From Bacteroidia bacterium (GTDB taxonomy: Bacteria > Bacteroidota > Bacteroidia > Flavobacteriales_D > Cryomorphaceae): DNA of 64,000 nucleotides. The notes under the pieces were generated by a model, which was not told where the DNA came from, searched no databases, and saw only the letters and a list, made by a program, of their open reading frames with translations. Position 1 is the first letter of the stretch. Every line of letters starts with the position of its first letter. The stretch is from the NCBI GenBank assembly GCA_030427905.1, contig JAUICL010000004.1, positions 151,722 to 215,721 of the forward strand, read 5' to 3'. Positions 14,491 through 44,142 of the stretch are shown here, piece after piece. A program made the translations under genes and the position numbers.

Positions 14491-14492
14491 AA

Positions 14493-27148: not shown

Positions 27149-30100
27149 TTAGTTTGTTGTTTGTAAATAGTATTCAAGTTCATAGCGGCTATCGAGATAA
27201 TTACCTAAGGCATCCCAGGAGCTTATTTCTATGCGTATAGCATCCCTTATGTTCTGCAGGAATGTGACATAGTCTATCGCCCCTTCGCGATAGGCTGTAA
27301 TGGAACCAGTCCTTTGTTCCTTTGCCAATGGCAGGGCCTGCTCACGGTAATAGGTCCATGAATTGCGCCACTTCAGGTATTCTTCGCGCATAGACAGGTA
27401 TCTGGCATTAAGCTCAAACTGATTTTGTCTGAAATTCTCGTTGGCGATTTCCCGTTGAATTTTCGCCTCTTGGGTACGGCCAAGTTCAGGGGCAAAGAAT
27501 AAGGGTATTTGAATACCAATCTGATAGGTATAAAAACCAGTTTGCCCATCTACTTTTTGTTGACCGTACTGGCCTTGAAGTTGGGGAAGGAACTGAGCTC
27601 TTCTTTCCTTTATTTGTGCTTCTGCCACTTCTATTTGTTGTTTATAAACATTGAGCAGGGGGTGTGTGCTTAATGAATCCGTATTAATGTTGAGCATCTC
27701 GGTCAACTGGTCGGTGGGTACGTCTGGCACCGTATAGAGCGTATCGCTTACTAACCATAAGTTGAGCCGCTGCAAGGCACTCAGATAATTGCGGTATGCC
27801 TGTTCCTTTTGAATGCGCACCTCATTGGCTTGGTTTTTAGTGGCCAAATACGCCAGTTTCGAAGTTTCTTCCACTTCCAACCTTATATCTGCCGCCCTTT
27901 CAATATCAGTAAAGAGCGAATCAAGACGGTTAAAAACCTGATACGTGTTTTTGGCAGTATATAACTGGCCCCAGGCCAATTTCACTTCCCTTTTAATTTC
28001 TGCCAGCGAAAGGTTAAGGGCCGTTTCAGCAAGAGCTACTTTCTCTTTTTGTAAACGAAGACGCGGGGCGATGCCAAAAATGTCAATATTCTGCTGCTGA
28101 ACGCCAATTTGGGTATAAACCCCATTGGAATTGCTAGTGGCCTCCTCGGCCCCGGTGAAGATTTGCGTATTCCCAAAATCCCAGGCAGTTTTCTTTAAGG
28201 CTTCTTCACTTTCTATTTGCAGTTTTTTTGCCTTTATCTGGGGAAAATATTCAATGGCTCTGTTTTGTGCCTGCTCAAGACTGATGGTTTGCAATGTATC
28301 AGGGTTTATTCCTTGCGCGCCTGCCGTTTGGGAAAAACCGAGGAAACCACCTACTCCTAACATGAGCACGATGGTGCTCATGGACATTCCGCGACTACGG
28401 TTTTCCAAATTCTTTTCCTTTCTTTTTTCTACAAAAGTGTACAGCACCGGCAGCACTACGAGCGTAAGCAGCGTGGCAGTAAGCATACCGCCAATTACCA
28501 CCGTGGCCAATGGGCGCTGTACTTCAGCACCGGCCGAAGCCGAAAACGCCATAGGCAGGAAGCCAAAAATATCAGTAGTAGCCGTAAGCATTATCGGGCG
28601 TATCCGCTCTTTGGTGCCCGTAAGGATTCGGTCCTTTATACTTGTTACCCCTTTTTCTTTCAGGGAATTGAAACGATTGATCAGCACCAAGCCATTGAGT
28701 ACTGCAACTCCAAAGAGCACGATGAATCCAACCCCGGCTGAAATGCTAAAGGGCATATCTCTCATCCAAAGTGCGAAAACACCTCCAATTGCCGCCAATG
28801 GAATGGCCATATAAATCATAATGGATTGGGAAACCGAGCCCAAGGCAAAATAGAGGAGAATAAAAATGAGAAACAGTGCAATGGGCACTACAATCGTCAG
28901 CCTTTTTTTAGCACTCTGTAGGTTTTCAAATTCTCCACCGTAGGAAATGTAATAACCCGAAGGCAGATTTAGCTGCTCATCCAGCTTGGCCTGTATGTCG
29001 TTTACTACAGATTCCACATCGCGCCCCCGAACATTTACGCCTACGTAAGTTCTTCTATAGGTATTGTCGCGGCTTATCTGCATAGGGCCGGGCTGATAAC
29101 TTATATCTGCTACTTCCTTAATGGGAATTTGGGTCCCGTCCTGGAGGTCAATGTAAAGATTACGGAGGTCGTCTATACTTTGTCGGTGGGCTTCATCAAA
29201 ACGGATGACCATATCAAAGCGTTTTTCACCTTCAAAAATTACTCCTGCTGTGCCTCCTGCGAAAGCAGAACTTATGTATTCGTTTACTTTTTCAATATCC
29301 AGGCCGTACTGTGCCATTTTTTTGCGGTTATAGCGCACAGTCATTTGCGGAAGGCCCGATGTCCTTTCGGGGTTTACATCACTCGCACCTTCTACGGTTT
29401 CTATAATATCAGCCATTTCCTGAACTTTTGTAGAAAGGATTTCCAGGTCTTCTCCATAGAGTTTAACAGCAATGTCTTCACGTACTCCCTCCAGCAGTTC
29501 GTTAAAACGAAGCTCCACTGGCTGGGTAAAGACAAGGTTCACTCCAGTCAACTGTTCTTCCAAAAGTTCTTTGATATTATCAATTAACTCTTCCTTGGTT
29601 TCGGCCGTAACCCATTTGTCCTTATCTTTTTCTAAAATCAGGTACATATCCGCAATGTCCATCGGCATAGGGTCTGTAGGGATGTCTGCTACTCCGATTC
29701 GGGCTGTAACCGTTTTGATTTCCGGAAAATTTTCCAACAAAAGGTTTTCAATTTTATAGGAAACTTCTGTTGCTTCACTCAGTGAACTACCAGGACGGAT
29801 TAAAGCCTGCATTGCGAGGTCACCTTCATCCAGTTGAGGCACGAATTCGCCACCCATCTTCGAAAAAGTAAACCCGGCAATACCCAATAGAATAACGGCC
29901 ACAACAATCACAGCAACTTTAAAGCGCATTGCACTTTTAAGCAATGGCAGGTAGGCACGATGAATGCCTCCAATGATTTTATCGCTGATTTTCTCCAACC
30001 ATCGCTCAAACCGGCCAAACCAATTTTTCTTGTTTTCAACAGGCTTCATAAAAAGCGCAGACATCATAGGGACGTATGTGAGGCACAAAACAATAGCCCC

Positions 30101-31561
30101 AATCATGGCAAATCCAAAGGTGTAGGCCATAGGCTGAAACATTTTACCCTCTACACCCGTGAGGAATAGAATAGGGGCAAACACAATGAGTATAATGACC
30201 TGACCGAAAAAGGCAGAGCCCATCATGGTGCTTCCTGCTTCGTAGGCCAACTCATCCATCACCCCTTGGTTAAACTTAATCTTTCCTGAGCGTATGCGCT
30301 TCTGAATTTCATAAACGGTTCCTTCAATGATTATCACTGCACCATCAATGATGATCCCAAAGTCGATGGCACCCAGGCTCATCAGGTTGGCCCACACATT
30401 AAACTGCTTCATCAAAATGAAGGCGAACAATAGGGAAAGTGGGATAGTCGTGGCTGTAATAAGCCCCCCGCGTAAACTTCCCAGTAAAATTACCAAAGCA
30501 AAAATGACAATTAATGCCCCTTCAATCAGGTTGGTTTTAACTGTATCAGTAGTTCGTGCAATAAGCGCGCTACGGTCAATAAAAGACCCGATTGTCAGTC
30601 CTTCAGGAAGTGATTTTTCCACTTCCTTCATGCGCTCTTTTACATTTTGAATCACCGCATTTGGGTTCGCTCCTTTGAGCATCATAATCATACCGCCAAC
30701 TGCTTCTTTTCCATCCTGTGTGAAAGCTCCGTAACGTACCTGATGACCAAAATGGACTTTTTCAGCCACATCATTAATGGTGATAGGAATGCCATTGTTA
30801 TTGCGAATGACAGTGTTACGTATGTCATCCAGGGAGCGTACCAGACCTTCGCCACGTATAAAATTGGACATTCGGTTTTTTTCGATATACGCCCCTCCAG
30901 TATTCACATTGTTCCGTGCAAGCGCTTCATATACCTCAGAAATGCCCACGTCCATTGCATTGAGCTTTTCGGGGTTAATAGAAACTTCGTACTGTTTGAT
31001 GTAGCCGCCAAATGAATTTACCTCCACTACACCTTCCAGTAAGGTCAGTTGCCGTTTTACAATCCACTCCTGAATGGTGCGAAGTTCCATTGGACTATAC
31101 ACAGAATCATAGCCTGGCTTCGGTTGAATGGTGTACTCGTAGATCTGGCCAAGACCTGTGGAAATAGGTCCCATTGTTGGGGCTCCAAATTTTTCGGGGA
31201 TGGTTTCCTGCAATTCGTTTAGCTTTTCCTGAACCAGTTGACGTGGCAGGTAGGTGCCCATATCGTCTTCGAATACGATGGTTACCACTGAAAGGCCAAA
31301 CCTTGAAATAGACCGTATTTCATCAACTCCCGGCAGGTTTCCCATTGCGAGTTCTACCGGGTATGTCACAAATTGCTCTATATCTTCGGTGGCCAGGTTT
31401 TCGGATACTGTGATTACCTGCACCTGGTTATTTGTAATGTCTGGAACAGAGCCCAGATTTACCGTGTACATGGAGTGGAGTCCTACCCCAATAATGGCAA
31501 GCGTAAGCAGGCCCACGATAGACTTGTTCTTTATTGAGAACGAGATGATTCTATTGATCAT
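27149..31561 (-). CDS. CzcA-family RND permease fused in frame to a TolC-like outer membrane factor (1470 aa)
   Basis: About the first 1058 aa are an RND pump. From the in-frame MSMSTIVLMLGVGGFLGF (Met at 28387) a signal-like segment and about 410 aa of OMF-like sequence follow, with no stop between the two parts. Confidence 0.8.
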   Translation of the reverse strand: MINRIISFSIKNKSIVGLLTLAIIGVGLHSMYTVNLGSVPDITNNQVQVITVSENLATEDIEQFVTYPVELAMGNLPGVDEIRSISRFGLSVVTIVFEDDMGTYLPRQLVQEKLNELQETIPEKFGAPTMGPISTGLGQIYEYTIQPKPGYDSVYSPMELRTIQEWIVKRQLTLLEGVVEVNSFGGYIKQYEVSINPEKLNAMDVGISEVYEALARNNVNTGGAYIEKNRMSNFIRGEGLVRSLDDIRNTVIRNNNGIPITINDVAEKVHFGHQVRYGAFTQDGKEAVGGMIMMLKGANPNAVIQNVKERMKEVEKSLPEGLTIGSFIDRSALIARTTDTVKTNLIEGALIVIFALVILLGSLRGGLITATTIPLSLLFAFILMKQFNVWANLMSLGAIDFGIIIDGAVIIIEGTVYEIQKRIRSGKIKFNQGVMDELAYEAGSTMMGSAFFGQVIILIVFAPILFLTGVEGKMFQPMAYTFGFAMIGAIVLCLTYVPMMSALFMKPVENKKNWFGRFERWLEKISDKIIGGIHRAYLPLLKSAMRFKVAVIVVAVILLGIAGFTFSKMGGEFVPQLDEGDLAMQALIRPGSSLSEATEVSYKIENLLLENFPEIKTVTARIGVADIPTDPMPMDIADMYLILEKDKDKWVTAETKEELIDNIKELLEEQLTGVNLVFTQPVELRFNELLEGVREDIAVKLYGEDLEILSTKVQEMADIIETVEGASDVNPERTSGLPQMTVRYNRKKMAQYGLDIEKVNEYISSAFAGGTAGVIFEGEKRFDMVIRFDEAHRQSIDDLRNLYIDLQDGTQIPIKEVADISYQPGPMQISRDNTYRRTYVGVNVRGRDVESVVNDIQAKLDEQLNLPSGYYISYGGEFENLQSAKKRLTIVVPIALFLIFILLYFALGSVSQSIMIYMAIPLAAIGGVFALWMRDMPFSISAGVGFIVLFGVAVLNGLVLINRFNSLKEKGVTSIKDRILTGTKERIRPIMLTATTDIFGFLPMAFSASAGAEVQRPLATVVIGGMLTATLLTLVVLPVLYTFVEKRKEKNLENRSRGMSMSTIVLMLGVGGFLGFSQTAGAQGINPDTLQTISLEQAQNRAIEYFPQIKAKKLQIESEEALKKTAWDFGNTQIFTGAEEATSNSNGVYTQIGVQQQNIDIFGIAPRLRLQKEKVALAETALNLSLAEIKREVKLAWGQLYTAKNTYQVFNRLDSLFTDIERAADIRLEVEETSKLAYLATKNQANEVRIQKEQAYRNYLSALQRLNLWLVSDTLYTVPDVPTDQLTEMLNINTDSLSTHPLLNVYKQQIEVAEAQIKERRAQFLPQLQGQYGQQKVDGQTGFYTYQIGIQIPLFFAPELGRTQEAKIQREIANENFRQNQFELNARYLSMREEYLKWRNSWTYYREQALPLAKEQRTGSITAYREGAIDYVTFLQNIRDAIRIEISSWDALGNYLDSRYELEYYLQTTN

Positions 31562-31651
31562 GTATAGAATGTTTTAGTATCGATAAAAATGATATAGTTT
31601 CAACTTTAGTGAAAGTCGAAAAGGACAGAGTTGTCCTGAGAAATACTGATA

Positions 31652-31957
31652 CTAAACTTGTGGTGGTTGAAGGATAGAGTCTAGATAGCCTTTAGTAAAA
31701 AAGGCACGATACAATGTGATTTCACCCTTATAGTGAATGGATATCAGGTGTGGGTAAGACACATGATTTATCACAAAATGAGAATGGCAGCAATGACATA
31801 CGCAGAAAGGTGAGCAAGGATTTTCAGTGTCGCTATGATCGTGATCTGCTTCTGTATTGTATGAAATTTCCATATTGTCAGTTACTGGCACATCTGCGCA
31901 TGGCGCAATGGAAAGCCCTAGAATGAAAAGAGACAATATGAGTGATATGAATTTCAC
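31652..31957 (-). CDS. small secreted Cys/His-rich protein upstream of the RND pump (DUF6660-like, recalled from memory)
   Basis: Signal peptide and the motif CSPFCVCHCCHSHF. Confidence 0.5.
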   Translation of the reverse strand: MKFISLILSLFILGLSIAPCADVPVTDNMEISYNTEADHDHSDTENPCSPFCVCHCCHSHFVINHVSYPHLISIHYKGEITLYRAFFTKGYLDSILQPPQV

Positions 31958-31981
31958 AATGCAATAATAACGAAAAAAAAA

Positions 31982-31996
31982 TGCAACCTGTTTGCA
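31982..31996. promoter_or_regulatory. palindrome TGCAA-cctgt-TTGCA after Fur paralog 2; candidate Fur-family box
   Basis: An inverted repeat homologous to 8948-8962 and followed by the same AAGTTTA. It lies upstream of the DUF6660-like/RND operon. Confidence 0.4.
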
Positions 31997-32000
31997 AAGT

Positions 32001-32402
32001 TTAAGAGCAGTTGGCGCAAGCCCCTTTATATACCATACTTGCGCTCGAAGCTCTAAATCCAGCAGGAATTTTTGTTTGTGGTATTTTAGATTGTGTTAGA
32101 CAATAAGTCTCACCGCAATTTACGCAATGAAAGTGAACGTGTTGGTCTTGCGGTTCACACTCGCAACCTTCTTCGCAAAGTGCGTACTTGACCGAACCTG
32201 TGCCATCATCGATGCTGTGAATTAGCTTTTTGTCTTCAAAAGTCTTCAGGGTTCGATAAAGGGTTGCTTTATCTGCTCTTTCAAACTTGGCTTCTAAATC
32301 ACCGAGACTGATCGCTGCTCCACATTCGATCAATTGCCTCAACACGAGCAATCTCATGGTAGTGGGTTTGATGTTTCGATTTTCTAATTTTTCTTCGAGC
32401 AT
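32001..32402 (-). CDS. Fur-family metal-responsive transcriptional repressor (paralog 2)
   Basis: KPTTMRLLVL...YRTLKTF plus Cys clusters. I use the ATG at 32402 (MLEEKL); the ORF track uses a TTG at 32426 that would overlap the pAgo stop. Confidence 0.8.
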   Translation of the reverse strand: MLEEKLENRNIKPTTMRLLVLRQLIECGAAISLGDLEAKFERADKATLYRTLKTFEDKKLIHSIDDGTGSVKYALCEEGCECEPQDQHVHFHCVNCGETYCLTQSKIPQTKIPAGFRASSASMVYKGACANCS

Positions 32403-32413
32403 AGTTTGATCAG

Positions 32414-34510
32414 TTACAAAAACCAAAGATTAGTTTTACCATATTCGGGAATGTCGTTTGCGTTGAAATGTGGGGCGATTTGAGCCACCATTTCAGGGTA
32501 TTTGATTGTAACAGGCAGATTCTGTTGGCGTACTGACTTCCAATACATTCTGCTGAACTGATAGACTTGTTCTATCAGGTTCTTAATCACTTTCGTGTCT
32601 TTCAATTCTTCCTTATCAGTACAATCAATTTTGAGCTTTACAGGAAATGGATAGCCGTCTTTTGGTTTGGGTAATGAAGTGGCGTACCTGGTACTGTTGA
32701 ACAACAAATACTGCTTGCCACCTAAATTGATAAATGTGCCGCTCATTGGCATTCTGCCGTTCCATTTCTTGTCAAAGGCTAGTATGTCTCTTGATTCGGT
32801 TTTGTTGATTGTGATAATGAATACTGGAATGTCTAAGCCAAGATTCTTTAGTTCGTGTTGTATGGGTTCAATTTCCGCTTTACTCATGGTTTTGTAGAAG
32901 TGGATAATGAGTCTGGAAGGTTCGCCATGTGCCGCTGCATATTGACGAACTGAATCTGCTATTGAACCTGCAAGTACATCAATCTCATTTTTCATGAAAT
33001 ACTCAAAGCGATTGAAGCGGCCATGATTGGTGAAGCTGAAAGACGAACCTATGTACTGAATGTTTTCTTCTTTATGGAGGAAAGCTCCAATACCTACAAT
33101 CAATTCACTCTGTTCAGTTTGTTTGAGTTGCCAAGGAATGCCATTGAGCTTTGCGAGCATGGCAATAGAAATGTTGGGTAAGCTATACACCCAATCTTCA
33201 CCTTGCTCTTCCATCTTGGCAGGATCTATAGCCTGAGAAGTAATGTTGCGTTTGAGTAAGAGTTCTTTGACCTGATAATAGATTTCTCGGTGTTGCTTGT
33301 CTGTATCAAACTTGCCAAATGGCGTAATATAAACTGCTATGTATTGTACCGAAGGGTCAAATGTTCTCTTAGTTAGTATTTCTTCTATCTGCTCAATAGG
33401 ATTCTCTCTGTTCTTAAAGCGAATACTGAATCCTTCCTGCGTATGGAACATGATTTTGGCATAACGCTCTAAGCCTTTGAAAAAGCCGAAACCATTCTTG
33501 AAACGACTGTCAAGGTCTTTGACAGTTTCGTAATCATCTTCATGGAAGATATAGAATAGGTTGACGGCTGAATGTGGGCTTTTCTTGTAGGGCTTATGCA
33601 GCTTGATTCCTGTGTAGGGTACTTTCTCGGTATTGCCATTGCCAAAGAGCAATTCATTACTTTCTTCTGAGGTGGAATCAATAGAAGTGGGCTTTACCTT
33701 GATAAAACCGCTTTTGTGTAGGTCTATGACCTTTTTGAAGTCTTCAACATTGATATTCTGCTTGTAGAACTTAACAATCAGGTCTAAATAATCAGAATAC
33801 TTGTTGGTAGGTTTGATTGGCTCATAAGGATAACCCATGGCGTTTTCAATGTCTGCATTGAGCACTGGAAACACTTCTGCATTATCAACGTCTTCTTCAG
33901 ATTCTTGTAGATTATCCCATTTTTGTATCGCACCTTCATACATTACCCAATTGAATGCCGCTGCACTTACAGAATGGACTAGCTCGTTGGCTGGCTGTTT
34001 AAAGACTTTTGACCTACCATCAAAGGAGAGTAGGATTTCAGGATAACCGCTAAAATGCTTGATTTGAACTTTGAGCGTGTACTTTTCATAAACTGTAAAA
34101 TCGGTGTAGGGCTGTTTGGTTGCAGGAATCCAAACGTTGGTATCTGAAATGAATGTAGAGCGAACCAAGGTGTCTTCTTTGCTCAAAAAGTGGTTACGAA
34201 TGAGCCAATTGAAATATCGCTTGGCGAAACTGTATTTGCTCTTGCTAAGGTTGAGCGAGACATGAACGGAACCTTCACTAGCCACCGTATAGGTGGTGTA
34301 AAGGTGTTCTTGCTCTTGGCTGCCAAGGTTTGGAAATTGCTCTTTGATTTCATCAGGAACTACCGTATGGTAGATCCGTTCTGCTCCTGGTATTTCATCT
34401 TCGAAGAAGTGAAATTCTAGTGCTTCTGTAGGCCAATCGAATTTAAGTACATTGAAAAATAGCTCTTGGTTAGATTGATTGATATTTTGATTTGGCCTAT
34501 TGCTATTCAT
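32414..34510 (-). CDS. prokaryotic Argonaute (long pAgo; MID-PIWI present, catalytic tetrad apparently degenerate)
   Basis: MID-type 5'-end pocket residues YYQVK...TSQ...LAKLNGIPWQL. PIWI-like blocks are ELIVGIGAF, RLIIHFYKT and NLPVTIKYPEMVAQ, with G/Y/P where the D/D/H-type catalytic residues are expected. Confidence 0.75.
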   Translation of the reverse strand: MNSNRPNQNINQSNQELFFNVLKFDWPTEALEFHFFEDEIPGAERIYHTVVPDEIKEQFPNLGSQEQEHLYTTYTVASEGSVHVSLNLSKSKYSFAKRYFNWLIRNHFLSKEDTLVRSTFISDTNVWIPATKQPYTDFTVYEKYTLKVQIKHFSGYPEILLSFDGRSKVFKQPANELVHSVSAAAFNWVMYEGAIQKWDNLQESEEDVDNAEVFPVLNADIENAMGYPYEPIKPTNKYSDYLDLIVKFYKQNINVEDFKKVIDLHKSGFIKVKPTSIDSTSEESNELLFGNGNTEKVPYTGIKLHKPYKKSPHSAVNLFYIFHEDDYETVKDLDSRFKNGFGFFKGLERYAKIMFHTQEGFSIRFKNRENPIEQIEEILTKRTFDPSVQYIAVYITPFGKFDTDKQHREIYYQVKELLLKRNITSQAIDPAKMEEQGEDWVYSLPNISIAMLAKLNGIPWQLKQTEQSELIVGIGAFLHKEENIQYIGSSFSFTNHGRFNRFEYFMKNEIDVLAGSIADSVRQYAAAHGEPSRLIIHFYKTMSKAEIEPIQHELKNLGLDIPVFIITINKTESRDILAFDKKWNGRMPMSGTFINLGGKQYLLFNSTRYATSLPKPKDGYPFPVKLKIDCTDKEELKDTKVIKNLIEQVYQFSRMYWKSVRQQNLPVTIKYPEMVAQIAPHFNANDIPEYGKTNLWFL

Positions 34511-34785
34511 TTTATTCGACTTTTTACAATTTCAAGGGCGGCTTCAGCAACTTCTTCATCCATGACAAGCTCATATACCTGATCCGCTAACCAAATTGTG
34601 AGTAATTCATTGGCATCAGCTTCTAACAGTTCAGCAAGTAAGAGAACTTGCTCTCGTTTCGCACGCCTTTCGCCACGTTCTATTTTACTGAACATTGGAG
34701 TGTCTATTTCAAGACTGGCAGCTAATTGGCGTTGCAAAAGTTCTTTACTCTCACGCAGCTCTTTTATTCGTTCACCAAATTGCAT
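34507..34785 (-). CDS. XRE-family helix-turn-helix transcriptional regulator
   Basis: IKELRESKELLQRQLAASLEIDTPMFSKIERGERR is a classic Cro/C1-type HTH. Its stop overlaps the pAgo ATG (ATGA at 34507-34510). Confidence 0.85.
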   Translation of the reverse strand: MQFGERIKELRESKELLQRQLAASLEIDTPMFSKIERGERRAKREQVLLLAELLEADANELLTIWLADQVYELVMDEEVAEAALEIVKSRIK

Positions 34786-34956
34786 GACCTTTCTATTTAT
34801 GACTTGTCAAATTTTGGCTAATTTACCATTTTAAGAATAAGAAAGAACTATACAAGAGAAGAAATCTTTGATAAAATGTGAAAGGACTTTAAGGAAGCTA
34901 AGGAAACAAAGGACTTGAGAATATTTTTCCTTGAAATCCTTAACATCCTGAGTTTC

Positions 34957-36714
34957 CTACTTCCCCGATTTGGTGTAATGGTCTTGCTTTGGGTGGTGAA
35001 TCAATCCTTTCTTTTTGAATTGCCCTATGTAGCCTTCTGCCGTTTTTGGATTGATACCCAATGTTTCAGCCAACTTCAAATAGGCTTGCCTATTGAAGGT
35101 TGGGGGTAAGGCATCAAAGAATTGTTCTTTGGTGGTCTTGTGAATCGGTAAATGGGTTTCTTCAGGCAATTCTGAAAAGATATGGCTAGAATGCTTCATC
35201 AAAACCGCAATGATTGAAAGCGCAGCTTGAAAATCTTCATCAGCGCAAACCAAAGGGTTTGCAGCTTCACCCGTTTCAAAACTTCTGAGCACAGTAAAAA
35301 TCATGGATAAGCGAAAGGTGATTAAACCTAAACGCCTTATTGAGCCTAAGAAATCATCACCGAGCAATGCGAGGTATTTCTGTTGCATTTGAGCGAAGTA
35401 TTGATTGAACTCTTGCTGCTGCCCTGGAGACAATTTGAAACAAATTGGCGGTGTGGCTTTCAGGTATTTATAGTACTCATAAAAGGTATCACCAAGTCCT
35501 TTGTAGTAGTCTTCTAATGCTCCGCTTTCTGTGTTCGCAAATACATCTAACCATTCATATTTCGTATTCATGTAATAGAACATAAAGCGGCTGAATAAGC
35601 CGTTTTCAGAACTAGGAATGAGACTGGTAATTTGCTTGGGTGTACCTGAGAGCATTGCAGAAATGCAAGGCTTCTCTATCTCTACAAACTCTTTATCGGT
35701 TCTGCGGAAATAGGAAATGGTTTCATGGTGAAAGGCTTTCCTGAATCCGTCTGAGTAGTTTCCGTAATCTGATTTGAAAGATTGGGCAAGCGTGTCGCCT
35801 TCTGTTTCAAATATCAATCCTTTGCCGCCACTGTCGGCCAATAGTTGATAGGCTCCTGTACTGCTATTGTTGGCAGGAATGTAGAGCATCATTTCAGGTG
35901 GTTTGGCTGGTTTCTGTACACTGGTGTCAGATCCTTTGGATTGATTGTAAGCTGCCAATTCTATTTCATATTCCTGTTTGGCTCTTGCTGCCTGTTCTCG
36001 TAAATCATTGTGTACCGGGTTTACCAAGTGCTTGCAATGATTCAATACGCCTTTACCTGCTGAGGCTCTACCTGTAACGAATACAAATAGATTGGGGTGA
36101 ACCTTGCTATTGCCATATATGCCGTAAACATTGGGCATACATGCACTTAAACAGACTACTGCACCTAATAGGAGAATGTCTCTTTCTTCATTGGAATTGG
36201 CGTACATGGTTACGTTTTGCAGAAACTCAGGAAGCTGCGGAAATACAGTATCAGGAATGGTTGGCATATCCATTGGCTTTACTTCAATGGTGGTTTCTAC
36301 TTTGCCAATCTTTATTCCTACCTGTTTCGCCAAATAGAAGAACGTACTGATATTAACTCCATGCCCTTTGGATTGTAGGCATTTATCAAACTGCTCATCA
36401 CATTCTTTCTGATTGTATTCTGCATGAAACCTACTGACACGGTGAAACAGGTCTCGACCTGATTCGCCTAACTCATCAGCGAAAGCGAAACCAATGTTTC
36501 GCCAATCGCTGTAAGTGCCTGTAATGTCTTGCTGTGCTTCTTCAAGTTTAGCAACAACTGTTTCCACTTCTGAAAGCTCAACAGAATGTTGAGGTGCTTC
36601 CTGCTTGGGCTGTGCCTTGCTTGATTTGTTAGTGGTTTCTTGCTTGGGTTCTGTATCTATTGCTTGTTGCTTGGGTGTATCTACCCAATCGTTCAAATTG
36701 AATTTCTCTCTCAT
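34957..36714 (-). CDS. DUF3987-like protein with an N-terminal primase-C-terminal (PriCT)-like region (mobile-element replication/helicase-like)
   Basis: The N-terminal segment SDWRNIGFAFADELGESGRDLFHRVSRF matches the PriCT-like pattern, and a P-loop-like TGRASAGKG is present. Typical neighbour of Bacteroidota integrases. Confidence 0.6.
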   Translation of the reverse strand: MREKFNLNDWVDTPKQQAIDTEPKQETTNKSSKAQPKQEAPQHSVELSEVETVVAKLEEAQQDITGTYSDWRNIGFAFADELGESGRDLFHRVSRFHAEYNQKECDEQFDKCLQSKGHGVNISTFFYLAKQVGIKIGKVETTIEVKPMDMPTIPDTVFPQLPEFLQNVTMYANSNEERDILLLGAVVCLSACMPNVYGIYGNSKVHPNLFVFVTGRASAGKGVLNHCKHLVNPVHNDLREQAARAKQEYEIELAAYNQSKGSDTSVQKPAKPPEMMLYIPANNSSTGAYQLLADSGGKGLIFETEGDTLAQSFKSDYGNYSDGFRKAFHHETISYFRRTDKEFVEIEKPCISAMLSGTPKQITSLIPSSENGLFSRFMFYYMNTKYEWLDVFANTESGALEDYYKGLGDTFYEYYKYLKATPPICFKLSPGQQQEFNQYFAQMQQKYLALLGDDFLGSIRRLGLITFRLSMIFTVLRSFETGEAANPLVCADEDFQAALSIIAVLMKHSSHIFSELPEETHLPIHKTTKEQFFDALPPTFNRQAYLKLAETLGINPKTAEGYIGQFKKKGLIHHPKQDHYTKSGK

Positions 36715-37676
36715 TGTCCTAAGTATTTTGAATGAATGAATATCTCTGGGTCATGGGGTAGGAAACAGGCTCTTGAAATGTCTTTTCCTGATTCATCTAC
36801 CTGCAACTGGTAAGTTGCGTTGAGGTAGTTGGCTATGCCCCTGAACCATGTTTGGTGATCGGCTTCCTGAATGTCGATAGCAATTACCCATTTTAACCCA
36901 TCACCTGAAGGTGAGGTAAAGAGTAGTTCAGTATCAAAGTGCTTATCATTCAGTAGTTTATCCTTGAGACCGTTTAGGTCTTCAAGGTGGTCAAAGTCAA
37001 TCACTATCAGTCCTGAATGTGCTTTCAGGTTCTTGTCGCTTCTCGAAGAGAATGCGCCTGAGAAGGTGACGTAATCAAAGCTGAAGGCTTTGTATTTACG
37101 TGCTTCTTTTACATCCGTAAGCGAACGCAGCTTTGCTGTGTGAGCTTTGAATGTTTCACCTTTAATCAGTTCATAGACTTCAAGTAAGCTCTTGGTTCCA
37201 TAAGGATTGACATTGGTAATTGGCTTTTTGAAGTAGCTGAATACAGGAATCTTGATTTCTTCCTTCTTGGCAACTGGCTCCTTCTCTTTGTCAAATTCCT
37301 TGTAGTCATAGAACGGGTGTTTGGTGTCAATTCGCAAGTGCATTTCTTCATTCAATACATCGAACAGGGCTTGCCCCTGGACTTTGAAATGAAGTGCTGC
37401 AAAATCAAAGGCATCACCGTTTTCAATGGCTCTTTCAGTATCAACATGAGTGGCCATTCCTTCTACAATCTTTATCCAAAGGGTAGCCTTGGAGTTGTTG
37501 AAAGGATTTTTCGCAGGTTTACAGTCCCTTCCCGCAAGGGAAAGGACGGTTTCACCCGGATAGTATTTGCGTAGCACATGGGCGTAGATATTTAGCCCGT
37601 AGTGCGTTCTCTCTAGGACTGACTCTCTACTTATTTCCATGGCTCTTGCTTTTAAAGGTTGAGTAATTGGATTCAA
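36711..37676 (-). CDS. primase-like protein (BT4734-type N-terminal domain family, recalled from memory)
   Basis: Acidic motif GLIVIDFDHLED and SPSGDGLKWV. It overlaps the downstream DUF3987-like gene. Confidence 0.5.
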   Translation of the reverse strand: MNPITQPLKARAMEISRESVLERTHYGLNIYAHVLRKYYPGETVLSLAGRDCKPAKNPFNNSKATLWIKIVEGMATHVDTERAIENGDAFDFAALHFKVQGQALFDVLNEEMHLRIDTKHPFYDYKEFDKEKEPVAKKEEIKIPVFSYFKKPITNVNPYGTKSLLEVYELIKGETFKAHTAKLRSLTDVKEARKYKAFSFDYVTFSGAFSSRSDKNLKAHSGLIVIDFDHLEDLNGLKDKLLNDKHFDTELLFTSPSGDGLKWVIAIDIQEADHQTWFRGIANYLNATYQLQVDESGKDISRACFLPHDPEIFIHSKYLGQ

Positions 37677-37923
37677 GTAGTTTCTCTAGGTCAGAAACCT
37701 TGTAGTAGAACTTGCCATTGATTCGGCTGTATGGCAGTGTTCCATTGTCTCGCAAAGTCTGTAGTGTGCGCTTGCTGATATGCAAGGCCATCATTACATC
37801 TTGTCCATCAATCCAAGCATCTTTGAAATGCTCTAATTGGCTCTTCTGAAACTGACCTAAGTAGGCTCTAATCCATTTGATTTCCTGAGAGAGCTTCAGG
37901 ATCATGTCTATCAACTCACTCAT
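37627..37923 (-). CDS. excisionase-family helix-turn-helix DNA-binding protein
   Basis: ISKRTLQTLRDNGTLPYSRINGKFYYKVSDLEKLL. Confidence 0.65.
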   Translation of the reverse strand: MSELIDMILKLSQEIKWIRAYLGQFQKSQLEHFKDAWIDGQDVMMALHISKRTLQTLRDNGTLPYSRINGKFYYKVSDLEKLLESNYSTFKSKSHGNK

Positions 37924-38219
37924 AGCTTCACTCTCCCTTTTTTGATTAGATAATCCGCTGCTCTTTGGTCTATCTCAGCATCCGTTTCATTTCGGTTGCG
38001 CAGCAACCATTCTTCTAACTCTACTCGGTTGAAGTATATCTTCTTACCATTCGGTTTATAGAATGGCACTTTGCCCGAGCTGGTGAGCTTGTACAGGTGC
38101 GAATGCGACACTTCAATGAATTGTGCTGCTTCGTTGAAGTTGAGTACATTCTTTAGTATTAGATTTTGGCCTAATACGTGTTTTTCTATGATTTCTAGTC
38201 TTTTTAAAATCTCTTCCAT
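37920..38219 (-). CDS. excisionase-family helix-turn-helix DNA-binding protein
   Basis: SHSHLYKLTSSGKVPFYKPNGKKIYFNRVELEEWL. I chose the start at the internal Met MEEILKRLE (38219); the ORF track extends to 38324. Confidence 0.65.
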   Translation of the reverse strand: MEEILKRLEIIEKHVLGQNLILKNVLNFNEAAQFIEVSHSHLYKLTSSGKVPFYKPNGKKIYFNRVELEEWLLRNRNETDAEIDQRAADYLIKKGRVKL

Positions 38220-38443
38220 TTTTATTGGATTTTGAAAATTTGAAAAAGACTTCAGCGCTAAAGTCACCAACGATTTCCGTTGACAAGACCAAAGGAAAAT
38301 AAAGGCAAATGGTAAGGTTCTCAATGGTAATTCGAGACACCAAAAACCATTGAATAACAGAATGTTATGAAATGAAGTGGTAATTTGAAATGGTAAAATC
38401 GAGCGACTTTACCATACTAAAAATCAGGGCAAAATGAAGCGGA

Positions 38444-39469
38444 TTAACGAAGGGTCGGAAGGCTGTCCAACCAATATTGGCTGTCAAGGTATTCCTTGTG
38501 CTTTTCTTCGTTCTGTTTGTATCTCCTGAATTGCTGGCTAAGGTTGGTGTTGTATCGGTAATCCAAGAAAACCCGAATGTCAGTAGGTTGGATTGGCTTC
38601 ATGGGCTGAAAGGTTCTTTCATTGAAATATCCTTTCTCAATAATCCTGTGATAGATCGCTGCTAGTTTCCCTTTAGAGCCGTGCGATTCAATGGCATTGT
38701 ATTCTGAATCAATAAAGCCACTTTGGAATAGCTTCTCTTCAAATAGGGCGAATTTGCTGCCGTCCTTAATTACTACTTTGTAGCTGAGAATAGAATCCTT
38801 CTCGGTTCTAAAGTCTCGTTTCAGTACTTGCAAGGCTTTATTGGTAGCCTTTACTTTTTGCTCAGCTATTGGCTTTTCAATCTCAAGGGTAGGAGCGTCT
38901 GTGATAACCGGCACAGGCGGTTGAACATGCTTATAAAATTTGATATAGAGTTTGTTTACGTCCATCTCAGCATCCTTCGCATAATCGGGGTAGTGTTCAA
39001 TTACTTCAAGATATAAGCGAATGAGTTCATGCTTTAAGTAGTGGAGGATATAAGAGTTATCATATTCATTGGTCAAATTGATTCTACCGCTTGCATCAGG
39101 TTCAAATTTTGGGTTGGTGAGATCCAAAGTTTCAAGTGTGTTGTGGAGGTCATTCATCAGACCTGGTAATGTTCGAGATAGTGGAAAATACACTTGGTAA
39201 AGTCTCGCTTTGTCTTTGGATTCAGAAACAATGCTGTGGAAGCTGTTCAACTCCTGAACTGCGTATTGATCTATCAGCTTCTTGTAGTAGGTGGTCTTTT
39301 CAGTCAGTGGATCTGGAAAAGTGAGTTCGTACAATGGTTGGGTATTGTAATTGGGAATGGTCACTGCAAGGGCTTGTTCCTTGTATTTGGCATCTGTAAA
39401 GTTTGCCTTCCAAGGCTCTTTACCATTGTGAATGAAGTCTCTGAAACTGCTGAAAAATGTATTGCTCAT
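38444..39469 (-). CDS. hypothetical protein of the integration module
   Basis: A 341-aa ORF whose stop region overlaps the integrase start (39466-39469). No recognisable motif. Confidence 0.5.
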   Translation of the reverse strand: MSNTFFSSFRDFIHNGKEPWKANFTDAKYKEQALAVTIPNYNTQPLYELTFPDPLTEKTTYYKKLIDQYAVQELNSFHSIVSESKDKARLYQVYFPLSRTLPGLMNDLHNTLETLDLTNPKFEPDASGRINLTNEYDNSYILHYLKHELIRLYLEVIEHYPDYAKDAEMDVNKLYIKFYKHVQPPVPVITDAPTLEIEKPIAEQKVKATNKALQVLKRDFRTEKDSILSYKVVIKDGSKFALFEEKLFQSGFIDSEYNAIESHGSKGKLAAIYHRIIEKGYFNERTFQPMKPIQPTDIRVFLDYRYNTNLSQQFRRYKQNEEKHKEYLDSQYWLDSLPTLR

Positions 39470-40560
39470 AGGTCTAACTTGATTTTGTTTGCAGCTTCTT
39501 TCTTCTTGTCGTCAATGATTTTGGCATAAATCTGAGTGGTTTTGAGTTCTCTATGTCCTAAGAGCTTTGAAACGGTGTAAATGTCTGTTCCTGCTGAAAG
39601 CTGTAAAGTAGCGTAGGTATGCCTTGCACAGTGAAATGAAATGGTCTTACTGATTCCTGCTCTCATCATCCATTGTTGCAGTTTCACATTGTGCCAAGAA
39701 GAGTATTTCAATCCTTTGAATACTCGTTCATCCTTATCTTGTCTTTCACCGAGCAAGCCAAAGGCTTGTTCTGAAATGGGTAAGGTTTCCGCTCCTTTGG
39801 TTTTCTTCTGCCTGAATCGAATATAATAGCCCATATCATTTGAGTGCTGTACTTCTGACCAAAGTAGCTTCTGAATATCGGACCATCTTAATCCTGTAAG
39901 AGCCGAGAATAAAAAGGCTGTCTTAATCGCAGGAATTTCACATTCCGCTTGTGCTGCAGCTTGTAGCTCTTCTAATGTTAGAAACTCTCGCTGAGGTTCT
40001 CCTTGCTTAAAGGCTTCAACTCCTTCACTAGGGTTGCTTGGTATGATACCGTCCTTTACCGCTTGTTTGAGTGCTGCTCTGAGCTTGTTGAAGTAGGAGT
40101 ACTTTGAGTTTTGGGAAAGCGGTTGACCGCTTGACTTCTTAGCATCATGGTCAAGGTATTCCTTGAAACCCATTACGAATTGTCTGTCTATTTCTTCAAA
40201 GGTCTTGTCATAAGGAATGTAGCCTTTCAAGTGTTTGAGCATACTATCCCAATTCCCGTAATTGCCTTTGCTATTGTGCCGCTTGTTGGTTAAGAGTTGA
40301 ATGTACTCTAGGAAACTGCCTTTCAGCTTTTCATTGTCTCGGAATCCATACACACCGTTTTGAATTTCAATCAGGCGTTTAGCTCGGATTGATTCTGCAA
40401 GCTGCATTGTCTTTTTATTGAGTTCCCTTTCAGCTTTGGTTTTCGGGTTTGGCTCAATGTATAGTTTCAGGTACTCAGCTTTGCGTTTTCCTTTATGGTA
40501 GTAGTCAAGGTATAGGCTGATCTTGCCGCCCTGGTGGCGTTCTCTCAATGTTACTTTCAT
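39466..40560 (-). CDS. int: site-specific tyrosine recombinase (integrase)
   Basis: SAM-like N-domain. The catalytic region has LTGLRWSDI, HCARHTYAT, LLGHRELKTTQIYAKI (R...HxxR...H...Y). Confidence 0.9.
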   Translation of the reverse strand: MKVTLRERHQGGKISLYLDYYHKGKRKAEYLKLYIEPNPKTKAERELNKKTMQLAESIRAKRLIEIQNGVYGFRDNEKLKGSFLEYIQLLTNKRHNSKGNYGNWDSMLKHLKGYIPYDKTFEEIDRQFVMGFKEYLDHDAKKSSGQPLSQNSKYSYFNKLRAALKQAVKDGIIPSNPSEGVEAFKQGEPQREFLTLEELQAAAQAECEIPAIKTAFLFSALTGLRWSDIQKLLWSEVQHSNDMGYYIRFRQKKTKGAETLPISEQAFGLLGERQDKDERVFKGLKYSSWHNVKLQQWMMRAGISKTISFHCARHTYATLQLSAGTDIYTVSKLLGHRELKTTQIYAKIIDDKKKEAANKIKLDL

Positions 40561-40910
40561 GCTGTAAACAGTTTTTCAATATCGGTTCTCTTAATAATGG
40601 TACGGGCTCCAACTTTGGCCGCAGGGATAGTTCCGCTCTTGATTTGGCGGTAAAGGGTCATTCTACTTGTGCCTAATAGCTGACAAGTTTCTTTAATGCT
40701 TAGAAACTCTTTGTCGCCAACTATCTCTTTGGAGTGATTGACCTTTTGCTGTGAAAGGGTGGGAACAGCTTCAACCTTCTGTTTGCGCTTGCGCTTCTTG
40801 TAAGCTCGCTTAGCACATCTGTCACTGCAATATTGAGTAACGGTGGTTTTGGCGATAAAATCGCTACCACATTCTTGACAGATTTTCGGAATACGAAGAT
40901 TGCTACTCAT
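40557..40910 (-). CDS. zinc-ribbon plus excisionase-type HTH DNA-binding protein
   Basis: CQECGSDF...CSDRC followed by LLGTSRMTLYRQIKSGTIPAAKVGARTIIKRTDIEKL. It overlaps the integrase start. Confidence 0.65.
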   Translation of the reverse strand: MSSNLRIPKICQECGSDFIAKTTVTQYCSDRCAKRAYKKRKRKQKVEAVPTLSQQKVNHSKEIVGDKEFLSIKETCQLLGTSRMTLYRQIKSGTIPAAKVGARTIIKRTDIEKLFTA

Positions 40911-40930
40911 GTTCTCTCTCTTTCGTGTTT

Positions 40931-40976
40931 CTGTATCAGGGTGTATCGCTATGTATCAGAATGTATCTGTATGTAA
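40931..40976. repeat. four TGTATC copies at exact 10-bp phasing plus a fifth degenerate copy (TGTAAC); candidate recombinase/excisionase arm sites or operator
   Basis: TGTATCaggg TGTATCgcta TGTATCagaa TGTATCtgta TGTAAC lies directly upstream of 40557..40910. An inverted GATACA lies in the mnmE 3' end (41159-41164). Confidence 0.5.
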
Positions 40977-41029
40977 CATAATCTCCCCCTTGATACTTCT
41001 AATCTGTTGCTAGAAACAAAAATGGTGTT

Positions 41030-41084
41030 CTCAGTAACAAATTAGTAACGAAAGATACGAAAAAATAGGCAATTCAGTAACAAA
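41030..41084. repeat. 12-bp perfect direct repeat TCAGTAACAAAT (41030-41041 and 41073-41084) in the junction region
   Basis: Seen directly in the sequence. There is an extra partial copy, TAGTAAC, at 41042-41048. Confidence 0.45.
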
Positions 41085-41149
41085 TAAGAGAAAGAAAAAC
41101 AGTCTAAAAGGCACTAAAAGAAGGGATTAACTAACCAAGTGAAAAGTAA

Positions 41150-42535
41150 TCACTTTCCGATACAGAACTTCGAAAAGATGTTACCTAACAAATCGTCGGT
41201 AGTGATCTCGCCAGTGATTTCACCCAGGTGGTGCAGGGCGCGGCGGATATCGATCGCTAGAAAGTCGCCGGTGATGCGGCTTTCAAGTCCGTGTAAAACG
41301 CCGTCTAGTGCTTTGTTGGTATTGGCTAGTGCTTCGTAGTGACGGATATTGGTTACCACCACATCCGAGCCTTCGTTTTGGAGGCTTCGCGCTTCCTCGG
41401 CCAGGGTCTTTTTTAAGTCGTCCAGACCTGTGCCATGGGCAGCAGAGATCAGGTAGGCGTTCTTAAAGTCGGCCGCAAGTGCCTTGGCTTGCGCTGGGTC
41501 CGTGATCTGATCCACTTTATTGATCAATAAGTAAACTTTGGCATCGCTTCCCACGCGGCTGCGGAGTTCATCGAGATTTTCCTTCACCCTGGCTTCGTCC
41601 ATAGTAGCGGCTTCCACAAGGTAAAGCACAATCTGTGCCTTCTGTGCCTTGTCCCAGGCGCGGTCTATCCCGATGGTTTCTATTTCATCAACCGTTTCGC
41701 GGATTCCCGCCGTGTCGATAAACCGAAAGCGCACACCTTCAATCACCGTCTCATCTTCGATGGTGTCGCGAGTGGTACCGGCAATGCTGCTCACAATGGC
41801 GCGTTCATCACCGAGCAGGGCGTTGAGAAGGGTGGACTTACCCATATTGGGAGCGCCGAGAATAGCTACAGGCACCCCGTTTTTGATAGCATTCCCTGTG
41901 GCAAAACTGGCCATCAATTCGCGGACAACGCCTTGAATTTCGACCACGAGGGTGCGTAGTTCGTTTCGATCGGCAAATTCTACATCTTCTTCCGAGAAGT
42001 CGAGCTCCAGCTCGATCAGCGAAGCAAAGTGAATCAGCTTCTCCCGGAGCTCGTTGATTTTTCTGGAGAACTGTCCCCGCATCTGGTTCATGGCCAGCTT
42101 GTGCGCAGCTTGTGATGAAGAAGCGATCAGGTCGGCAATGGCTTCGGCCTGACTCAAATCCACCTTTCCATTCATAAAGGCGCGCATGCTGTACTCGCCC
42201 GGCTCGGCCATCCGGCACCCATTTTCGATCAGGAGTTGGAGTATGCGCTGACGGATGTAAGGCGACCCGTGGCAGGTGAGCTCCACCGTGTCTTGACCCG
42301 TAAACGAACGCGGGCCCTTGAACACCGACAGCACCACTTCATCGATCCACACATCGCCGTCTTTGATGGCTCCGTAGTGCACGGTGTGCGTATCCACCTT
42401 GCTCAAGTCCTTTTTGAAATAGGGCTTTAGGACGGTGAGTGCTTCGGGGCCAGAAATCCGGATAATGGCGAGCGCACCAACACCTTCGGGCGTTGATAGG
42501 GCGCAGATCGTATCGTTTGGGTTGCCAAATTGCAT
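41150..42535 (-). CDS. mnmE: tRNA modification GTPase MnmE (TrmE)
   Basis: DTICALSTPEGVGALAIIRISG, G-domain GAPNMGKSTLLNAL and DTAGIR, and a C-terminal CIGK. I use the start at MQFGNP (42535). Confidence 0.9.
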   Translation of the reverse strand: MQFGNPNDTICALSTPEGVGALAIIRISGPEALTVLKPYFKKDLSKVDTHTVHYGAIKDGDVWIDEVVLSVFKGPRSFTGQDTVELTCHGSPYIRQRILQLLIENGCRMAEPGEYSMRAFMNGKVDLSQAEAIADLIASSSQAAHKLAMNQMRGQFSRKINELREKLIHFASLIELELDFSEEDVEFADRNELRTLVVEIQGVVRELMASFATGNAIKNGVPVAILGAPNMGKSTLLNALLGDERAIVSSIAGTTRDTIEDETVIEGVRFRFIDTAGIRETVDEIETIGIDRAWDKAQKAQIVLYLVEAATMDEARVKENLDELRSRVGSDAKVYLLINKVDQITDPAQAKALAADFKNAYLISAAHGTGLDDLKKTLAEEARSLQNEGSDVVVTNIRHYEALANTNKALDGVLHGLESRITGDFLAIDIRRALHHLGEITGEITTDDLLGNIFSKFCIGK

Positions 42536-42704
42536 GGCGCAAAGATAAGGCGATTCCAAAGAGAATTTGACATGGTTTGGACCAGCAGCCGTTATTGAAA
42601 AGGGCCATGTGAATTAATCCGCGAAAATGACCGAAAAGGGCTTGGCAGAACTATGGGAATCAACTAAGTTTGTGGCGCTGAAAAAACGAATTTAACAAGC
42701 CGAA

Positions 42705-43574: not shown

Positions 43575-43597
43575 TACTGACAAGAAACCTTCTGATG

Positions 43598-43650
43598 AAG
43601 TCACATCGAGTGGCCGAGAGAATGGAGGCTGTATCGAGATGGACGACAAG
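43598..43650 (+). repeat. solo A arm of the GIY-YIG-associated element family, wedged between the sucD stop and its terminator
   Basis: AAGTCACATCGAGTG-GCCGAGAGAATGGAGGC-TGTATCGAGATGGACGACAAG. Confidence 0.7.
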
Positions 43651-43706
43651 GTTTGTGCTGTTTCCATTTAAAGACAGCCCTAACAATATTAGATTTTTCA
43701 TAAGTA

Positions 43707-43737
43707 AACCCTGACGAATCTCGTCAGGGTTTTTTCT
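43707..43737 (+). terminator. rho-independent terminator of sucD
   Basis: CCCTGACGA-atc-TCGTCAGGG stem (43709-43729) followed by TTTTTT. Confidence 0.8.
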
Positions 43738-43779
43738 TGCTATAAAAGTTAAATGATGTTAGCCTATTTGGAGAGAACT

Positions 43780-43954
43780 AAGTCACATTAAGCGACAGTC
43801 CTGATCGCTAGCGTCGGGGATGGACGTCATCAATTTAGTGAACTATTAAATTCAACCACTCTAAGCCGTCGTTCTCGATACACTCCTAACCCTTCCTTTG
43901 GTCGGTTAGGACTACCATTGACGCTACGGTCAAGACATATGCTCGAACTGACTT
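43780..43954 (+). repeat. gene-less element copy (degenerate A arm plus B arm)
   Basis: AAGTCACATTAAGCG...GGATGGACGTCATC, then CCGTCGTTCTCGATACA...GCTCGAACTGACTT. Confidence 0.6.
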
Positions 43955-43967
43955 TAAGCAATAAATA

Positions 43968-44142
43968 AAGTCACATCGAGTGCCTGTGACCGACCAACGG
44001 GTAGGTCTGAGGCGTATCGAGATGGACGGCAAGACTTGTATACAACTTGACTCCGACATATTTTCCCGTCGTTCTCGATACATCCCGAAAGCTTTCGGGA
44101 TACCCTGACGTTCTCAGTCAGGGCAGGTGCTCGAACTGACTT
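43968..44142 (+). repeat. gene-less element copy (A arm, about 32-bp spacer, B arm with two hairpins)
   Basis: All four conserved boxes are present. The hairpins are TCCCGAAAGCTTTCGGGA and CCCTGACGTTCTCAGTCAGGG. Confidence 0.7.

Follow-up and report, generated by a model that had tools for sequence, protein, structure and literature searches.

Introduction

For most long-B Argonautes the current explanation is that of a sensor which sets off an effector, be it a nuclease, a SIR2 protein or a membrane protein, and a primase-associated subclade is the acknowledged exception. This minority subclade was tied by Song et al. (2023, PMC10620215) to og_54, a VirE-N protein encoded two to eight genes upstream of the Argonaute, and its function was left open. 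Fu et al. (2025, PMC11724360) identified the og_54 protein as a primase-polymerase, AgaPP, and its neighbour as a helicase, AgaPH. According to their work, the conserved parts of the mobile element are the integrase, AgaPP, AgaPH and the long-B prokaryotic Argonaute (pAgo), while the helix-turn-helix (HTH) and defence genes are variable. Among the papers searched, we found no later one on the AgaPP-associated long-B subclade. Here we describe one such pAgo from a stretch of 64,000 nt of a Bacteroidia bacterium (GenBank assembly GCA_030427905.1, contig JAUICL010000004.1, positions 151,722 to 215,721), which is referred to below as the window. The pAgo is encoded at 32414-34510 on the minus strand, directly behind the gene of a small XRE-family regulator.

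This class has already been published (Song 2023; Fu 2025), and the window does not bring a new kind of system to light. What it offers is the cleanest natural test case, with a two-gene XRE-pAgo unit, a putative operator, no restriction genes, strong purifying selection and many samples. On the analyses presented below, we lean, with somewhat better than even confidence, towards a stand-alone, RsAgo-like protein that would bind foreign DNA under the direction of a guide and whose expression would be switched by the XRE autorepressor. The work also clears up two false leads, namely XRE and Fur as partners of the pAgo.

A predicted inactive Argonaute with a full-length fold

A first-pass annotation, made from the DNA letters alone, had recognized MID and PIWI hallmarks of Argonautes in the 698-aa open reading frame (ORF), and this reading was borne out by Pfam, PADLOC and the motifs YYQVK, TSQ and LAKLNG. 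The Pfam Piwi family (PF02171) matches residues 406-679 (E=2.3e-14), and the PADLOC pAgo model spans the full length of the protein (E=2.4e-262). An AlphaFold2 (AF2) model, with a mean pLDDT of 87.2 and a pTM of 0.84, places the complete architecture of N, L1, reduced PAZ, L2, MID and PIWI in a single chain. The N-lobe covers residues ~1-290 and includes a reduced PAZ-like insert at ~172-232, and it is followed by MID (~298-430) and PIWI (~430-698); these boundaries, like the size of the PAZ remnant (~60 residues), were read from the secondary structure of the model and not from a residue-level superposition. Searched with Foldseek against the PDB, the model matches complexes of full-length RsAgo best (E ~1e-29, TM-score 0.66-0.68, ~815 aligned columns), with PIWI-clade and other full-length Argonautes next (0.6-0.68 overall). 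The nearest PDB sequences, AfAgo, EcAgo (BPAN) and RsAgo, are all long-B, AfAgo being the top match for the MID-PIWI portion. The placement of the pAgo in the long-B clade uses these nearest sequences as a proxy.

The first ~380 residues had been suspected to conceal an effector domain that is not recognized as such. In support of this idea, no Pfam family covers residues 1-405, and the sequence similarity to solved Argonautes begins only at ~270-290. However, residues 21-220 form blocks with pLDDT values of 86-95 in the AF2 model, which aligns over ~815 columns with full-length RsAgo and PIWI-clade proteins at TM-scores of 0.6-0.68, RsAgo being the best at 0.68. Because the model matches full-length RsAgo, residues 1-380 are predicted to be an ordinary N-L1-(small PAZ)-L2 lobe of the usual Argonaute type, and a cryptic effector in this region is highly improbable. 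We also searched longer relatives of 723-767 aa for fused HTH or effector domains and found Piwi alone; the N-lobe of these longer proteins differs from that of the window pAgo.

To map the slicer site, TtAgo, the gene of which was taken from plasmid pTT27, was aligned by hhalign to a profile of 66 pAgo family sequences. The first tetrad residue of TtAgo, D478, falls on G475, the glutamate-finger residue E512 lies within an 8-residue deletion after M506, and D546 falls on Y539. The hhalign probability was low (14%, with a single-sequence template), although the same register is obtained from the classical motifs and in HMMER alignments to RsAgo and AfAgo. As the hhalign alignment ended before the fourth tetrad residue, this position rests on the RsAgo/AfAgo alignment and on motif knowledge; it is E673, in PVTIKYPEMVA, which pairs with the glutamate of PVTIFYSERIA in RsAgo. 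RsAgo and AfAgo, both of which are catalytically inactive, show the same tetrad pattern in the HMMER alignment. The loss of the DEDX slicer residues, which the first-pass annotation had read from the sequence, was therefore upheld by the alignment, with no intact tetrad. An active slicer with unconventional catalytic residues could be imagined from E673 at the fourth position and from E572, D575 and D580, acidic PIWI residues that are conserved in the family. Nevertheless, G475 and Y539 replace both aspartates and the glutamate-finger loop is deleted, which is the pattern of the inactive RsAgo and AfAgo, so that we rate slicing as the least probable of all the readings considered here.

The guide-binding site, in contrast to the tetrad, has been retained. 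The MID motifs are YYQVK (Y411 to K415), TSQ (Q426) and LAKLNG (K454), and in the hhalign alignment K415, Q426 and K454 correspond to K422, Q433 and K457 of TtAgo. All three pAgo residues are invariant in 66 homologues and Y411 is nearly so, in agreement with the intact 5'-phosphate pocket that had been noted from the letters. Judged from these alignments, the pAgo is catalytically dead with a conserved 5'-phosphate pocket. Its dN/dS of 0.04-0.06 against five relatives argues that the gene is functional. A full HMMER scan places the protein in a family of 257 clusters (50% identity) at E<=1e-30, mostly of 670-710 aa. Among the PLSDB plasmids it has only remote Piwi proteins as matches (<=27% identity), and among the INPHARED phages it has none; neither collection is known to contain the element in plasmid or phage form.

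Related loci lack a conserved neighbour and a dedicated effector

Relatives were collected by a scan of one genome per species, which yielded at least 578, nearly all from Bacteroidota. For the neighbourhood analysis, 80 loci from different species, with pAgo identities of 45-97%, had their ORFs called and clustered and the clusters annotated. Acidiluteibacter ferrifornacis encodes a pAgo with 97% identity to that of the window. No neighbour is conserved beside the pAgo across these loci, and no family exceeds ~16% at either adjacent position. The gene directly upstream encodes HsdR in 13 loci, RhuM in 8, PIN, XRE or a DUF5655-type protein in 7 each and an M48 peptidase in 6, and the gene directly downstream encodes Fur in 13, GmrSD in 7-9 and AraC in 6-7.

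A SIR2, TIR or BPAN-type nuclease gene was sought among the 68 next downstream neighbours and found in none. In the window, Pfam and PADLOC detected no APAZ, TIR or SIR2 neighbour, and PADLOC gave no match for the two proteins encoded downstream of the pAgo. The lack of a recognizable effector, which had been noted for the window, thus extends to the whole clade, and the concern that homologs might regularly be flanked by an effector that has merely been lost here is answered by its absence from all 68. The effector-less state appears to be a property of the subclade and not a local loss, because the relatives' neighbours include no effector while a SIR2_2 gene stands beside the distant P0133. 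The initial assumption that an inactive pAgo must work with an operonic effector is contradicted by the published effector-less long-B subclade and by RsAgo, which has no operonic effector.

Two distant relatives have neighbourhoods of their own. P0133 (745 aa; L092, 2939-7985), which is 43% identical to the window pAgo over residues 201-698, is encoded between a BrxL-like ATPase gene and the SIR2_2 gene, which comes after it, and this locus looks like a BPAS-type long-B system beside a BREX component. Another has an overlapping 335-aa gene of no known family downstream.

The order of genes in the related loci is recurrent and confined to one strand: primase-polymerase, helicase, XRE, variable restriction-modification (R-M) or other defence genes, pAgo and variable cargo. 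The element backbone was seen within 8 kb in 35 of the 80 loci, with type I, II or III R-M, PIN, RhuM and Abi genes interposed. The pAgo gene is tightly packed against the preceding gene (median gap 11.5 nt, same strand in 77 of 78), R-M genes occur within 8 kb upstream in 52 of 80 loci, and defence genes flank the pAgo on both sides. Such an arrangement could be expected if the pAgo were a sensor acting in trans with its variable neighbours (type I/III R-M, GmrSD, RhuM, PIN) or with host nucleases, for instance by marking DNA for restriction or by taking restriction fragments as guides. Against this stand the ceiling of ~16% on any neighbour family and the window lineage itself, the island of which has no R-M genes although its pAgo is intact and under purifying selection. 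We regard a sensor in trans as unlikely, albeit worth retaining.

The pAgo belongs to a mosaic AgaPP-type integrative element

Upstream of the XRE gene, the window encodes an AgaPH-type PriCT-DUF3987 helicase (34957-36714, minus strand; PF08707 and PF13148, E=1.2e-65) and an AgaPP-type BT4734/VirE-N primase-polymerase (36711-37676, minus strand; PF08800), the third gene upstream of the pAgo. The helicase lies directly downstream of the primase-polymerase, as in the AgaPP-associated elements. The rest of the backbone (37627-40910, minus strand), identified by Pfam, comprises two HTH_17 proteins, a DUF6617 protein, a tyrosine integrase (39466-40560, minus strand; Phage_integrase with Arm-DNA-bind_5) and an excisionase-like HTH_17 protein (40557-40910, minus strand). 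Across a gap at 40911-41149, the host gene mnmE (trmE; 41150-42559) adjoins the integrase end. The same backbone order was found beside mnmE in the related loci L104-L109, and the junction between the integrase end and mnmE in L104 and L106-L108. The gene order of the element can thus be written as excisionase-like HTH, integrase, DUF6617, two HTH_17, AgaPP, AgaPH, XRE, variable defence slot, pAgo and variable cargo. With all backbone genes present, the window pAgo is placed by its gene context in the published and functionally open AgaPP/og_54 long-B subclade. The earlier view of the operon as part of an integrative island, between mobility genes and metal-resistance cargo, holds: the integrase, primase-polymerase and helicase genes lie upstream and the metal-efflux genes downstream. 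No tRNA gene was found in the 64-kb window, beyond which the far end of the element may lie, no direct repeats of >=13 nt that could mark att sites were shared by 40881-41180 and the window's first 9 kb, and Rfam at the gathering threshold gave no match in the whole window.

Comparison of the related elements indicates that they are strongly mosaic, with the contents of the slot and the pAgo allele exchanged between backbones. AgaPH proteins that are 92-95% identical accompany pAgos that are only 47-48% identical (L044 versus L046, L048, L050 and L075), and pAgos that are 95-97% identical accompany XREs that are only 36-39% identical (L046 versus L049 and L059).

These comparisons bear on the proposal that the pAgo serves the element together with AgaPP and AgaPH, through copy-number control, the handling of primers or ends, the resolution of replication products or the exclusion of sister elements. 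The conservation of the integrase, AgaPP, AgaPH and pAgo genes, with their reported co-evolution, favours such a service, as does the judgement that abortive infection is unlikely for the AgaPP-associated pAgo (Fu et al. 2025, PMC11724360). However, the combination of nearly identical helicases with widely diverged pAgos, together with a correlation of only 0.33 between pAgo and AgaPH identities, is more in keeping with a swappable module than with a co-adapted complex, and up to 8 variable cargo genes separate the pAgo from the replication genes in related loci. A role in the service of the element is accordingly doubtful, slightly more so than sensing in trans.

The XRE gene is a likely controller at the head of an empty cassette slot

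The operon leader (34507-34785, minus strand) encodes a 92-aa, C-protein-like HTH regulator of the XRE family, the stop codon of which overlaps the pAgo start in an ATGA (34507-34510), as the first-pass annotation had seen and as the called ORFs reproduce. The protein matches Pfam HTH_31 (1.4e-10; HTH_31/HTH_3) and the HTH_VI, CapH and control-protein models of PADLOC (5e-8 to 1e-6). The palindrome TGACAAGTCA (34800-34809), which had also been noticed earlier, lies 15 nt upstream of the XRE ATG and is the probable XRE operator. Its exact sequence recurs in front of XRE genes, both in diverged elements and in R-M loci outside such elements, and it occurs 20 times in 1.3 Mb of related loci against ~1.8 expected, 15 of the 20 copies being located just upstream of XRE starts.

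The consensus of the Bacteroidota -7 promoter box is TAnnTTTG. The sequence TAAATTAG (34818-34825, minus strand) reads as this box with one mismatch, and relatives carry TATATTTG or TATATTAG in its place. Given this -7-like box, the putative operator likely lies just downstream of the transcription start. A scan of 31500-35100 for sigma-70 promoters and terminators returned no more than expected by chance, the consensus being unsuited to Bacteroidota, and it showed no terminator between the XRE, pAgo and Fur genes.

BLASTN of the window against L001-L005 revealed a junction segment (34471-34552, minus strand) that is unique to the window lineage and consists of the last ~14 XRE codons and the first 13 pAgo codons. 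At this point relatives hold 2.6-6.4 kb of R-M genes, and their pAgo begins with MQKNQELFF, while the window pAgo has a lineage-specific N-terminal extension of 10 residues. A 2.6-kb insert of methyltransferase and restriction-enzyme genes is present in L002, the nearest relative that shares the backbone (93% identical DNA), and missing from the window, and in the closest relatives generally the same XRE is encoded 2.5-6.4 kb upstream of the pAgo with R-M genes in between. There are no R-M genes in the window island, either between the XRE and pAgo genes or elsewhere. The interval from XRE to pAgo is therefore best read as a cassette slot between conserved genes, which is empty in the window, and the two genes overlap because it is empty. 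The junction thus serves as an empty-slot marker; nothing similar to its unique 81 nt was found in the fetched loci outside the lineage. The overlap is no artefact, because the identical XRE was found in at least 10 metagenome contigs, each time overlapping a 698-aa pAgo and beside mnmE.

The XRE belongs to a very large family, with 3580 clusters at E<=1e-10, the members of which also occur away from the pAgo. Type III Mod-Res operons in L098-L103 (~9910-14600) begin with a 79%-identical XRE that has the same leader, TAAATTAGCCAAATATTGACAAGTCA, at sites that are without AgaPP and AgaPH, mostly without a pAgo and often broken by transposases; the order XRE, Mod, Res is also seen in L001, L003 and L043. 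The identities of XRE and pAgo are uncorrelated (Spearman 0.13, 190 locus pairs). The XRE gene and its operator thus resemble a portable cassette for the control of restriction systems, and we infer that XRE is an autorepressor of the controller type, standing at the head of any cassette placed behind it.

Metal-resistance cargo and the Fur regulator

The first-pass annotation had pointed to a Fur-family gene beginning 11 nt after the pAgo stop, and this gene (Fur1; 32001-32402, minus strand; 133 aa) is confirmed by Pfam (FUR, 4.7e-10). It is the first gene of a Fur-DUF6660-CzcA module, in which it is followed by a DUF6660 protein (31652-31957, minus strand; Pfam) and by a 1470-aa resistance-nodulation-division (RND) pump (27149-31561, minus strand) that combines ACR_tran with an OEP outer-membrane-factor domain in one ORF (Pfam). 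The metal cargo as a whole (8967-32402) consists of stacked modules, each led by a regulator, namely Fur1, an AraC-type protein and Fur2. The AraC-type regulator (20974-21543) leads its own metal-resistance module (AraC-HMA, 15722-21543), which contains a second RND pump of 1274 aa (15722-19546).

In the sister elements L104-L107, which have the identical XRE and the overlapping 698-aa pAgo, the AraC-HMA module directly follows the pAgo with an ATGA overlap. As the AraC module adjoins the pAgo in these elements, the Fur1 module seems to have been inserted later. The identical Fur is always encoded 11 nt after a pAgo, but these pAgos are of 688, 698 or 699 aa, the 699-aa proteins belonging to a family branch that is ~48% identical to the window pAgo. 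It is always accompanied by DUF6660 and a CzcA-type pump, and since AraC-HMA replaces it after the pAgo in the sister elements, Fur is best explained as the regulator of a swappable metal-efflux module. Fur1, DUF6660 and the RND pump are, on this comparison, cargo outside the pAgo system.

The final 53 nt of the pAgo gene are repeated in direct orientation as a relic (9378-9430, minus strand), which is 98% identical to 32418-32470, from which it lies 23,040 nt apart. It is ATGA-coupled to Fur2 (8967-9383), and the earlier statement that a pAgo-fur junction was once coupled in this way is correct, with the specification that the Fur protein at the relic is a different paralogue, 50% identical to Fur1. 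No further relics of pAgo 3' ends were found in the 8-kb downstream flanks of the 80 related loci. The relic probably marks the place where a sister element had integrated in tandem and later lost its backbone by deletion.

We can now weigh the idea that XRE, Fur or both are DNA-binding partners that replace the effector. The ATGA coupling of XRE and pAgo and the position of Fur 11 nt downstream had suggested it, and lambda-repressor-like HTH proteins are often encoded near long-B pAgos, several of which carry one as a fused part (Ryazansky et al. 2018). However, XRE is adjacent to the pAgo in only 7 of the 80 loci and Fur in 13, and the divergence of XRE does not follow that of the pAgo, nearly identical pAgos being found with XREs that share little more than a third of their residues. 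Moreover, the XRE gene with its operator heads R-M operons that mostly lack a pAgo, AraC takes the place of Fur, and Fur moves with DUF6660 and CzcA. The functional coupling to either regulator that the first-pass annotation had proposed is thus largely refuted by the neighbourhood data, and we hold a partnership of this kind to be very unlikely.

A region of repeats lies on the far side of mnmE, between a sucD-like gene and a Por_Secre_tail gene (43576-44312). It contains several diverged direct repeats of 29-78 nt with 73-90% identity, spaced ~190 and ~570 nt apart, and one repeat family ends in a terminator-like hairpin. Tandem Repeats Finder detected no array and Rfam no match in this region. 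The repeats may represent a repeated small RNA or an element similar to repetitive extragenic palindromes.

Proposed function

In the mechanism that we favour, the pAgo would act alone, like RsAgo. The Y-K-Q-K pocket would load short 5'-phosphorylated guides, probably RNA as in other long-B pAgos, and the guided protein would bind complementary DNA on plasmids, phages or rival elements that enter the cell. Interference would require neither slicing nor a dedicated suicide effector, as the bound targets might simply be blocked or be exposed to host nucleases. XRE would bind the TGACAAGTCA operator over its own promoter and thereby set the expression of the downstream gene, which in the window is directly the pAgo. 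The persistence of the XRE-pAgo-only arrangement, intact in the metagenome contigs described above, was counted in favour of solo action. The pAgo also behaves like a defence gene, because 48%-identical alleles sit among defence genes on backbones with 93%-identical AgaPH.

Several considerations weigh against this interpretation. The type of guide, the type of target and the outcome are carried over from RsAgo and EcAgo, which share only ~15% identity with the window pAgo. RsAgo-style interference is itself mechanistically unclear. The abundance of R-M genes just upstream in 52 of 80 loci is compatible with cooperation in trans. The correlation between pAgo and AgaPH identities, weak as it is, is positive. 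Fu et al. (2025, PMC11724360) report that the pAgo has co-evolved with AgaPP and the integrase, which could hint at a role in the biology of the element.

A broader formulation can also be considered. The pAgo could be an effector-less core gene that protects the element or excludes its rivals in a non-abortive, non-slicing manner, perhaps coupled to the primase-polymerase and helicase or to the restriction cassette in the slot, and gated by a C protein; the XRE-pAgo unit would then be its simplest natural form. We offer this only tentatively, as a proposal that is less probable than stand-alone binding of foreign DNA, though not as doubtful as sensing in trans or service to the element.

Comparison with known systems

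The XRE shares with the control (C) proteins of R-M systems its small HTH_3/HTH_31 domain, its position at the head of the operon and a palindromic operator that would lie over its own promoter, and its relatives precede R-M genes. It differs in that it precedes a pAgo instead, and its putative operator, TGAC-AA-GTCA, is not a classical C-box.

Among the Argonaute systems, the short pAgo systems SPARTA, SPARSA and SPARDA consist of a MID-PIWI-only protein with an APAZ partner, whereas the window pAgo has a full N-lobe and no such neighbour. AfAgo with AfAgo-N resembles the window pAgo in being inactive and in having a PAZ domain that is reduced or absent; however, AfAgo is split into two polypeptides, while the window pAgo unites N-L1-L2 and MID-PIWI in one chain. 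The BPAN, BPAS and BPAM systems belong to the same long-B clade, and EcAgo (BPAN) is among the closest solved sequences. They differ by a downstream nuclease, SIR2 or membrane effector, which is absent from the window, where Fur stands in that place, and the N-lobe of the SIR2-linked relatives is different.

RsAgo is the best structural match, and it shares with the window pAgo the dead tetrad (glycine first, glutamate fourth), the Y-K-Q-K pocket and the lack of an operonic effector. On the other hand, it is only ~15% identical and longer (777 aa), its PAZ region is larger, and it has not been reported from an element of this type.

The closest likeness in gene content is to the published AgaPP/og_54 elements, with which the window shares the integrase, the BT4734-like primase-polymerase, the PriCT-DUF3987 helicase and the long-B pAgo a few genes downstream. 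These elements likewise have variable HTH and defence genes in between, no dedicated effector and Bacteroidota hosts. The window element adjoins mnmE and has no tRNA gene in the window, whereas the published AgaPP example ends at a tRNA, which is a non-defining feature. What sets the window element apart is its empty slot, the resulting overlap of XRE and pAgo, the 10-residue N-terminal extension of the pAgo and the metal-resistance cargo.

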